Below are positions 3,488-4,683 of a DNA stretch of 4,683 nt, piece by piece. The number at the start of each line of letters is the position of its first letter. Position 1 is the first letter of the stretch. Source of the DNA: a virus (lineage: Duplodnaviria; Heunggongvirae; Uroviricota; Caudoviricetes); IMG/VR virus record IMGVR_UViG_638341084_000005; one strand, written 5' to 3'. The notes under the pieces are model-generated. The model ran no database searches and was not told the origin of the DNA. It was given only the letters and a program-made list of their open reading frames with translations. Position numbers and translations under genes: made by a program.

Positions 3488-3530
3488 AATAAAAACTTGC
3501 AAAATCAATTAGTTTACCCTTAATCCCTGT
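3488..3530. other. Prophage/host attachment junction; the crossover core lies somewhere in this AT-rich interval
   Basis: Lies between the int stop (3487) and the first codons with MlrA-like translation (IPVTLRAWQRRYGLLKPQ from ~3523). The exact core cannot be set without the other prophage end or an uninterrupted mlrA sequence. Confidence 0.45.
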
Positions 3531-3867
3531 CACGTTACGCGCGTGGCAGAGGCGTTACGGGTTGCTGAAACCGCAACGGACAGACGGCGGTCATCGACTG
3601 TTCAACGATGCCGATATTGACCGTATCCGCGAGATCAAACGCTGGATCGACAACGGCGTGCAGGTCAGCAAAGTTAAAATGCTGCTCAGTAATGAAAATG
3701 TTGATGTGCAGAACGGCTGGCGCGATCAGCAAGAAACATTACTGACCTACCTGCAAAGCGGCAATCTGCATAGCCTGCGAACGTGGATCAAAGAGCGCGG
3801 TCAGGATTACCCCGCCCAGACACTCACCACACATCTGTTTATTCCTCTGCGCCGACGACTTCAATGT
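3523..3867 (+). pseudogene. mlrA: mlrA (yehV) fragment: MerR-family regulator missing its N-terminal ~15 codons (prophage insertion) and its C-terminal half (IS66 insertion)
   Basis: Translation ...PVTLRAWQRRYGLLKPQRTDGGHRLFNDADIDRIREIKRWIDNGVQVSKVKMLL... is a MerR-type HTH domain lacking its first helix and matches my recollection of E. coli MlrA. The frame is open back to 3493 with no ATG start. The MlrA-like sequence ends at ...RRRLQC (~3867), where IS-terminus sequence begins. The track ORF 3562-3975 is a chimeric read-through. Confidence 0.7.
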
Positions 3868-4683
3868 AAGCGGCTCGCCAGAACCGTATTGATATTTACT
3901 GAGAGGTCAGATCAACTTTCCAGGGCAACAGATCGCGTACCCGGTTTGCCGGCCAATCCTGGATATGCTCAATGACGTAACGCAGCCATTTTTCTGGTTC
4001 CACATTGTTCAGACGGCATGTGCCGATCAGCGAGTACAACACCGCCGCATGTTCGCCACCGCTGTCGGAACCCGCGAACAGCCAGTTTTTCCGGCCTACG
4101 GCCACTCCCCGTAAGGCGTTCTCTGCGATGTTGTTGTCGATTTCCACCCAGCCATTACTGCAGTACACGTTCAGGCCATCCCACTGTTTCAGCAGGTATG
4201 CGAACGCTTTTGCCGTATCCGAGTGACGCGACAGTGTTTTCATCTGAGTCTGTATCCAGTCATACAGTGACTGCATCAGTGGCGCAGCTCTGGCTTTTCT
4301 TGCCGCCAGACGCTGTTCTGCTGTACATCCCCGGACTTCTGCCTCTATGGCATACAGTTCACCGATACGCTGCAGGGCTTCCGTGGTGATGTCGGTGGGC
4401 ACTCTTGCATGCACATCGTGGATTTTTCTCCGGGCATGAGCCATACACGCGGCTTCCGTTATTCTGCCGGATTCGTATAACACCCGGTAACCACCGTAAG
4501 CATCGGCCTGAAGCACACCGCTGTAACCGGCCAGATGATTTTGTGGATGGATACCTTTCCGGTCCGGTGAGTACGCGAACCAGACCGCCGGGGGCATTTC
4601 CGAACCGGCGTTACGGTCATCACGGACGTAGACCCACAGCCGGGCGGTCCGGGTTTTACCGCTGCCCGGCTCTGACCGGGACG
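3866..4683 (-). mobile_element. IS66-family insertion sequence, right end (partial; continues beyond window end)
   Basis: Terminus begins GTAAGCGG at ~3866, consistent with the GTAA start typical of IS66-family ends. The transposase stop lies 30 bp inside. GC content is clearly higher than in the adjacent int gene. Confidence 0.8.
3896..4683 (-). CDS. IS66-family transposase (TnpC-type), C-terminal ~262 codons; 5' end outside window
   Basis: Minus-strand frame is open from the window edge to the stop at 3896-3898. Translation includes ...[16 protein letters not shown]... and [33 protein letters not shown]...[12 protein letters not shown]...[10 protein letters not shown], the conserved C-terminal signature of IS66-family transposases. 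The ATG at 4597 used by the ORF track is internal. Confidence 0.9.

Follow-up and report, generated by a model that had tools for sequence, protein, structure and literature searches.

The stretch analysed here, called the window throughout, is 4,683 nucleotides long, and its features are collected in Table 1. According to the ORF listing and the Pfam and PHROG scans, it holds the integrase end of a lambdoid prophage, and this is followed by an internal piece of mlrA (yehV) and by one end of an insertion sequence (IS). Positions are those of the window unless a record or gene is named.

Table 1. Features of the 4,683-nt window and the basis of each assignment.
Feature	Position	Strand	Basis and remarks
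Prophage early-region small genes, function not assigned	159-1894		ORF listing
Prophage excisionase gene xis	1913-2167	+	PHROG 539, E 1.6e-37; xisR annotated at the same place in strain 12A
Prophage tyrosine integrase gene int, 428 aa, arm-binding N-terminal domain	2201-3487	+	Pfam Arm-DNA-bind_2 E 2.1e-24, Phage_integrase E 5.4e-18
Phage-side DNA between int stop and att core (int-proximal arm of the junction)	3488-3525		Comparison with phi330 attP and K-12
20-bp att core CCTGTCACGTTACGCGCGTG	3526-3545 (= mlrA nt 49-68, codons 17-23)		Three-way alignment
Internal mlrA (yehV) fragment, nt 49-388, codons 17-130	3526-3865	+	Alignment to K-12 and 12A mlrA, Pfam
Chimeric ORF, 137 aa: distal MlrA residues 29-130 plus 35 codons antisense into the IS	3562-3975	+	ORF listing
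Predicted 8-bp target site ACTTCAAT	3858-3865		Inferred from the duplications at nine surveyed IS679-like copies; repeat expected past the other IS end if the insertion was simple
IS66-family element, IS679 or close variant, right-hand 818 nt, running off the window end	3866-4683	-	IS679 identity
IS terminal inverted repeat GTAAGCGGCTCGCCAGAACCGTATT	3866-3890		Against the other end of complete copy L002: first 7 nt the same, 17/25 matching
tnpC 3' part, DDE transposase, C-terminal ~262 codons	3896-4683	-	Pfam; TAA at 3896-3898

The prophage end and the mlrA remnant

The int protein was identical to WP_000063640.1 of Escherichia coli O111:H2 strain 12A, and the integrase is of the VT1-Sakai / BP-4795 / YYZ-2008 type. 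Downstream of int, positions 3488-3525 were the same as in the attP of phage phi330, with one differing base nearby, just past the int stop (3481, T versus A), and were unlike the K-12 DNA upstream of mlrA nt 49. When the window was aligned with phi330 attP (L022) and the empty K-12 mlrA site (L013), CCTGTCACGTTACGCGCGTG was the sole stretch common to all three; to the left of it the window tracked the phage and to the right it tracked mlrA. Phage records aligned with the window only as far as 3526-3545, and the PhiR5_1 record stops at 3526. Both int and xis adjoin the junction and the core is common to attP and attB, as in a lambdoid prophage residing at the mlrA/yehV att site; on this alignment, the junction is the known mlrA/yehV attachment site. 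The other prophage junction, where mlrA nt 1-68 are expected, is some 50 kb away from the window. The prophage thus detaches the mlrA promoter and codons 1-16, including the first helix of the helix-turn-helix (HTH), from the distal piece. A simple scan of the + strand from int to distal mlrA predicted no intrinsic terminator.

Two side observations were made on the phage DNA. In phi330 attP the core CCTGTCACGTTACGCGCGTG is present as two copies in direct tandem (L022 3951-3990), and it occurs as a single copy in K-12 attB and at the window junction. A 171-aa phage ORF at 159-674 (L001 1960-2475 in strain 12A) has an open frame and aligned with positions 62-230 of the 230 in PHROG 9263 (E 1e-120), so by the extent of this match it probably lacks about 60 N-terminal residues of that family. 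The annotation of strain 12A has only a short 'frameshifted' pseudogene here (L001 1960-2138), despite identical DNA and the open frame.

In K-12, mlrA comprises 732 nt and encodes 243 aa. Window 3526-3866 aligned without gaps to K-12 mlrA nt 49-389 with seven SNPs, and to mlrA of the O111:H2 strain 12A with zero mismatches. The first-pass annotation had placed the beginning of the mlrA part at 3523; the homology stands, the coordinate does not, for the identity begins at 3526, a shift of 3 nt, and positions 3520-3524 (TTAAT) can be matched to mlrA nt 44-48 only by way of a 1-nt indel. The translation of 3523-3867 gave Pfam matches to MerR_1 (E 1.2e-14, from profile position 16) and to MlrA_helical (E 2.7e-18, profile positions 1-50 of 75). 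A full MlrA, the MerR-family activator of csgD, has a MerR HTH, a helical and a C-terminal domain in about 243 aa. The fragment is without the first HTH helix on its 5' side, and on its 3' side it is missing the last part of the helical domain and all of MlrA_C. Judged by its domain content, the mlrA piece in the window is a gene remnant and not a functional member of the family.

The remnant is open into the IS, where it forms the chimeric ORF of Table 1. Gene callers take the TTG at 3562 as the start of a 215-aa distal MlrA when annotating related genomes. The chimeric product, looked up exactly with four alternative starts, matched no record. In the RefSeq/PGAP annotation, the prophage-split distal mlrA is given as intact, namely as an 'HTH-type transcriptional regulator MlrA' of 233 aa whose ATT start lies in phage-derived DNA. 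These calls are located at L001 5309-6010 (corresponding to window 3508 onward) and at 9308/9362-10009 in L003-L012. Neither the 233-aa nor the 215-aa call is flagged as a pseudogene, though codons 1-16 and the promoter are about 50 kb away, so a screen for gene presence would count mlrA as present in these strains.

The IS679 end and its junction with mlrA

The IS terminus GTAAGCGG starts at 3866, where the mlrA homology stops. It begins with 5'-GTAAGCG, the terminal repeat typical of IS66/IS679, and matches both ends of the complete copy L002. The first 807 nt of the IS (3866-4672) were identical at all positions to eight of nine IS679-like copies of other genomes and at 806 of 807 to the ninth, i.e., near-identical to reference IS679 DNA. 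Identities of the IS part to the best 30 genome matches were in a range from 99.0 to 99.8%, and the RefSeq label of these was 'IS66-like element IS679 family transposase'. The minus-strand ORF matched DDE_Tnp_IS66 (PF03050, E 7.4e-71, profile positions 81-283 of 284) and IS66_C (PF13817, E 1.7e-16), and thus carries the domains of an IS66 TnpC on the C-terminal ~262 codons lying within the window. It equals the 523-aa TnpC of L002 except at the window end, where deletions at 4673-4676 alter its first three residues. The complete copy L002 is 2704 bp long with the order tnpA-tnpB-tnpC, and its imperfect terminal repeats share GTAAGCG and agree at 17 of 25 positions; being imperfect, the inverted repeats of IS679 were missed by a repeat search with default seed and were found by direct end-to-end comparison. 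The assignment of the terminus to the IS66 family, made earlier from the letters alone, is thereby upheld by the 807-nt identity to copies which RefSeq annotates as IS679, by the GTAAGCG end and by the TnpC domains.

IS679, a member of the IS66 family, was reportedly first described on plasmid pB171 of the EPEC O111 strain B171 by Han et al., in J Bacteriol in 2001. The element in the window has the same 807-nt terminus, the same GTAAGCG end and a TnpC with DDE_Tnp_IS66 and IS66_C. It differs from the reference elements, which have 2704 bp, tnpA-tnpB-tnpC and 8-bp duplications, in that the window has the right-hand 818 nt only, and from all IS679 copies examined in the two 1-nt deletions at 4673-4676, which occur in the window copy alone. 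The deletions lie in the last 11 nt, 4673-4683, where all nine IS679-like copies read CTCCTGGACC and the window reads CTCTGACC; no complete-genome match was 100% identical across this window end. The tnpC copy may be frameshifted (net -2) and defective, or these positions may be a low-quality sequence end. The latter would fit a window that is the whole of a short contig ending in a repeat.

Nine IS679-like elements from nine genomes (L002, L014-L021) were surveyed for their ends and flanks. Perfect 8-bp direct repeats flanked all nine, and tnpA and tnpB were found upstream of tnpC in all reference IS679 copies. Five of the elements had 2704 bp, and four were 2699-bp variants with a different left end. 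The canonical form (L002, L016, L018, L020, L021) has the left end …ATGATGCGCTTAC and a tnpA of 216 aa, while the 2699-bp variant (L014, L015, L017, L019) has the left end …ATGAGCCGGTTAC, a tnpA of 225 aa and the TnpC WP_099554548.1. The right-hand end is identical in both isoforms for at least 807 nt, hence the window is compatible with either, and the left IS end expected in the source genome is …GCGCTTAC or …GCCGGTTAC. Two isoforms with a common right end suggest a mosaic or recombinant IS. The duplications were AT-rich in a genome of about 50% GC: eight tabulated ones had 2-4 G/C per 8 positions (at most three in seven of them), and CAACAACC of L015, the ninth, had 4/8. This composition hints that IS679-like elements prefer AT-rich 8-mers. 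One copy (L015 2455-2556), nested in an IS1 remnant, had its terminal 51 nt tandemly duplicated (GTAAGCGG…GATCAAC twice), with CAACAACC as the 8-bp duplication around the outer copy.

The junction was located by a three-way alignment of the window, the intact mlrA of strain 12A and an IS679 copy from the 12A genome. The window tracks mlrA through …CGACGACTTCAAT(G), i.e., ...CTTCAAT(G), and tracks the IS from GTAAGCGGCTCGCCAG…/GTAAGCGGCTCGCC onward. The final unambiguous mlrA base is 3865 (nt 388), and G3866 is common to mlrA nt 389 and to base 1 of the IS. The break at 3865/3866 thus falls on the exact first base of the IS terminus, as expected for transposition, and it confirms the earlier reading that the MlrA-like translation ends at ...RRRLQC where the IS begins. 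The last C of RRRLQC is encoded by TGT, made of TG from mlrA and T from the IS; the native codon is TGC. The transposase stop had been placed 30 bp inside the terminus on the opposite strand, which is exact: 30 nt (3866-3895) separate the terminus from the TAA. The IS interrupts codon 130, inside the MlrA helical domain (profile position 50 of 75), and removes the whole of MlrA_C. The adjoining 8-mer ACTTCAAT has a G/C content of 2/8, and only 11.5% of the mlrA 8-mers are equally AT-rich.

Order of the two insertions and rival explanations

Positions 1-3866 of the window had zero mismatches to E. coli O111:H2 strain 12A. This strain has the same prophage junction, then an uninterrupted distal mlrA, yohO and yehW, with no IS in mlrA. 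A query consisting of two-thirds IS679 matched 12A at 16 places, by which count IS679 is multicopy and abundant in the 12A-like lineage. The int-mlrA junction was present in 456 of 5,426 complete E. coli genomes, and in none of the 456 was it accompanied by the IS junction. In megablast against the 5,426 complete genomes, neither a 291-nt nor a 1,284-nt query spanning the mlrA::IS junction was covered to 80% or more at any place, nor was this junction found by megablast in phage records or PLSDB plasmids, and the exact 31-nt junction GCCGACGACTTCAATGTAAGCGGCTCGCCAG was not found in species-representative genomes, IMG/VR or JGI metagenome contigs. In the neighbourhoods of the identical integrase, for which the longest contigs were read, distal mlrA was uninterrupted in all 10 places among the matches listed. 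For the reciprocal junction that a simple insertion predicts (IS left end, ACTTCAAT and GCCAACAACCGACTC, the last being mlrA nt 389 onward), the collections gave no match, neither with a gapped pattern allowing a duplication of 0-20 nt nor with a synthetic 328-nt query.

The claim that two mobile elements sit in mlrA holds for the lambdoid prophage at CCTGTCACGTTACGCGCGTG and IS679 at nt 388/389. That the gene was already truncated when the IS arrived is backed by parsimony, for 12A is identical over 1-3866 with the prophage and without the IS, and none of the 456 genomes has the IS. Since 12A has the same prophage and an uninterrupted distal mlrA, the prophage is placed before the IS, and by parsimony the IS insertion would be a recent, private event. 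An O111:H2 E. coli resembling strain 12A would first have gained the lambdoid prophage, and Int-mediated site-specific recombination at the 20-bp core, in codons 17-23, would have split mlrA. Later, a TnpC-mediated transposition would have brought IS679 into distal mlrA at nt 388/389 (codon 130), tnpC pointing antisense to mlrA. The recombination and the transposition are shown by the sequence, and parsimony gives their order. The IS is most likely complete (~2.7 kb) and would be followed by the 8-bp duplication ACTTCAAT, then by mlrA nt 389-732 and yohO.

We consider this course, a prophage split followed by a simple IS679 insertion, the probable explanation of the locus; the insertion was probably neutral, because mlrA was already inactive. 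Duplications at nine of nine surveyed copies and the AT-rich ACTTCAAT make a simple insertion likely. Against the explanation stand the facts that the window stops 818 nt into the IS, that the last 11 nt hold two deletions, which may mean a defective copy or a poor sequence end, that the order of events is given by parsimony, and that many IS679 copies mean many partners for IS-IS recombination, which could have left a deletion or inversion boundary here. The IS end could thus mark a rearrangement boundary, at which, after or in place of a simple insertion, recombination between IS679 copies or an IS-mediated adjacent deletion removed or moved the 3' half of mlrA, with unrelated DNA beyond. 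Partners for this are abundant (cf. the 16 places in 12A), the window does not reach the other IS end, and none of the collections gave the predicted reciprocal junction, though they lacked the mlrA::IS junction as well. However, the surveyed copies all still have matching 8-bp duplications, so simple insertions dominate, and mlrA-yohO-yehW is intact downstream in the 10 int-bearing loci inspected and in 12A; a rearrangement boundary is therefore rated as unlikely.

The junction could also be an artefact of assembly or sequencing, a chimeric contig of mlrA and a repeated IS. Its absence from every collection searched would agree with this, as would the end of the window within a repeat, with two indels typical of a poor end in the last 11 nt. 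The break itself speaks against it, falling on the exact first base of GTAAGCG with just 1 nt common to both partners: a chimera from repeat collapse needs a shared stretch and a random one would miss the terminus, which makes an assembly chimera very unlikely, and it was rejected. The flanking 8-mer is, moreover, AT-rich like genuine IS679 targets, and an artefact of any kind is scarcely credible. Another proposal accepts the insertion and disputes its neutrality: the IS hit would have been selected as a permanent 'lock' of the prophage-controlled mlrA switch, with curli and biofilm off, and/or for the loss of residual distal-MlrA activity. Distal MlrA fragments are strongly expressed on induction and can raise or lower CsgD-dependent traits (PMC5931665), and the scan of the + strand gave no intrinsic terminator that would separate distal mlrA from int. 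Yet the insertion is a single private event, seen in 0/456 prophage-bearing complete genomes, and IS679 is just very active in the lineage; selection for the hit seems quite improbable.

Consequences for mlrA and for strain typing

In lambda-type recombination between attL and attR, only a core-type site is needed on the bacterial side. The suggestion that the IS next to att could affect prophage excision found no support. The IS is separated from the core by 320 bp of bacterial DNA, on the side where a core-type site suffices, so an effect on excision is unlikely and was rejected as a consequence. The arm sites would be on the phage side, which fits the arm-binding domain found in this Int.

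A prophage integrated in mlrA breaks up the DNA-binding motif, and curli and biofilm formation are lowered (PMC5931665; PMC3874044). Excision of the prophage restores the native mlrA, as stated in PMC5931665, which cites Uhlich 2016, and when the prophage is induced, distal mlrA can be expressed through run-off transcription (PMC5931665; PMC3874044). The locus shares its integrase type and the truncated-yehV junction with the Stx1-type prophages found in mlrA/yehV of O157:H7 and also of some non-O157 strains (Sp15 / CP-933V / VT1-Sakai). VT1-Sakai matched at 95.8% over window 134-3863, and a 'truncated protein of E. coli K12 YehV' is listed in its record. The consequence is also the same, i.e., loss of the MlrA DNA-binding motif and less curli and biofilm, reversible by excision (PMC5931665; PMC3874044). 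The differences are the O111:H2-like host (100% to 12A), no stx visible in the window, and a distal mlrA that carries an IS. After excision here, the rejoined mlrA would still carry the IS at codon 130, so that a reversible knockout becomes permanent, and a distal MlrA expressed by run-off would stop at residue 130 with a nonsense tail of 35 residues. That function would be lost even after excision, as proposed from the first-pass annotation, is a sound inference, with the IS at codon 130 removing part of the helical domain and the whole MlrA_C. The IS thus probably turns the prophage-reversible knockout of mlrA into a permanent one.

In structure the locus is ordinary: both the IS and the occupation of the gene by a prophage are known. 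The insertion allele itself had no counterpart in the collections searched. Typing of O157:H7 by IS629 insertion sites is an example of an IS-based strain marker. The insertion described here is likewise a lineage-private IS site which could be scored by one junction PCR; it differs in IS family and in being a single site in one sequence. The proposed use of the nested arrangement for strain typing is plausible in view of the absence of the junction from all collections searched. With no occurrence in 5,426 complete E. coli genomes, the junction …GACGACTTCAAT|GTAAGCGGCTCGCC… could be used to mark one O111:H2-like sub-lineage by PCR or k-mers. Such a marker is the main practical use of the locus, and a small one. 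For the biology of mlrA, the locus offers an example of a prophage-made disruption, reversible in principle, that was fixed by a later IS; in this strain, loss of the prophage by curing or excision would not bring back the curli and biofilm that depend on MlrA.
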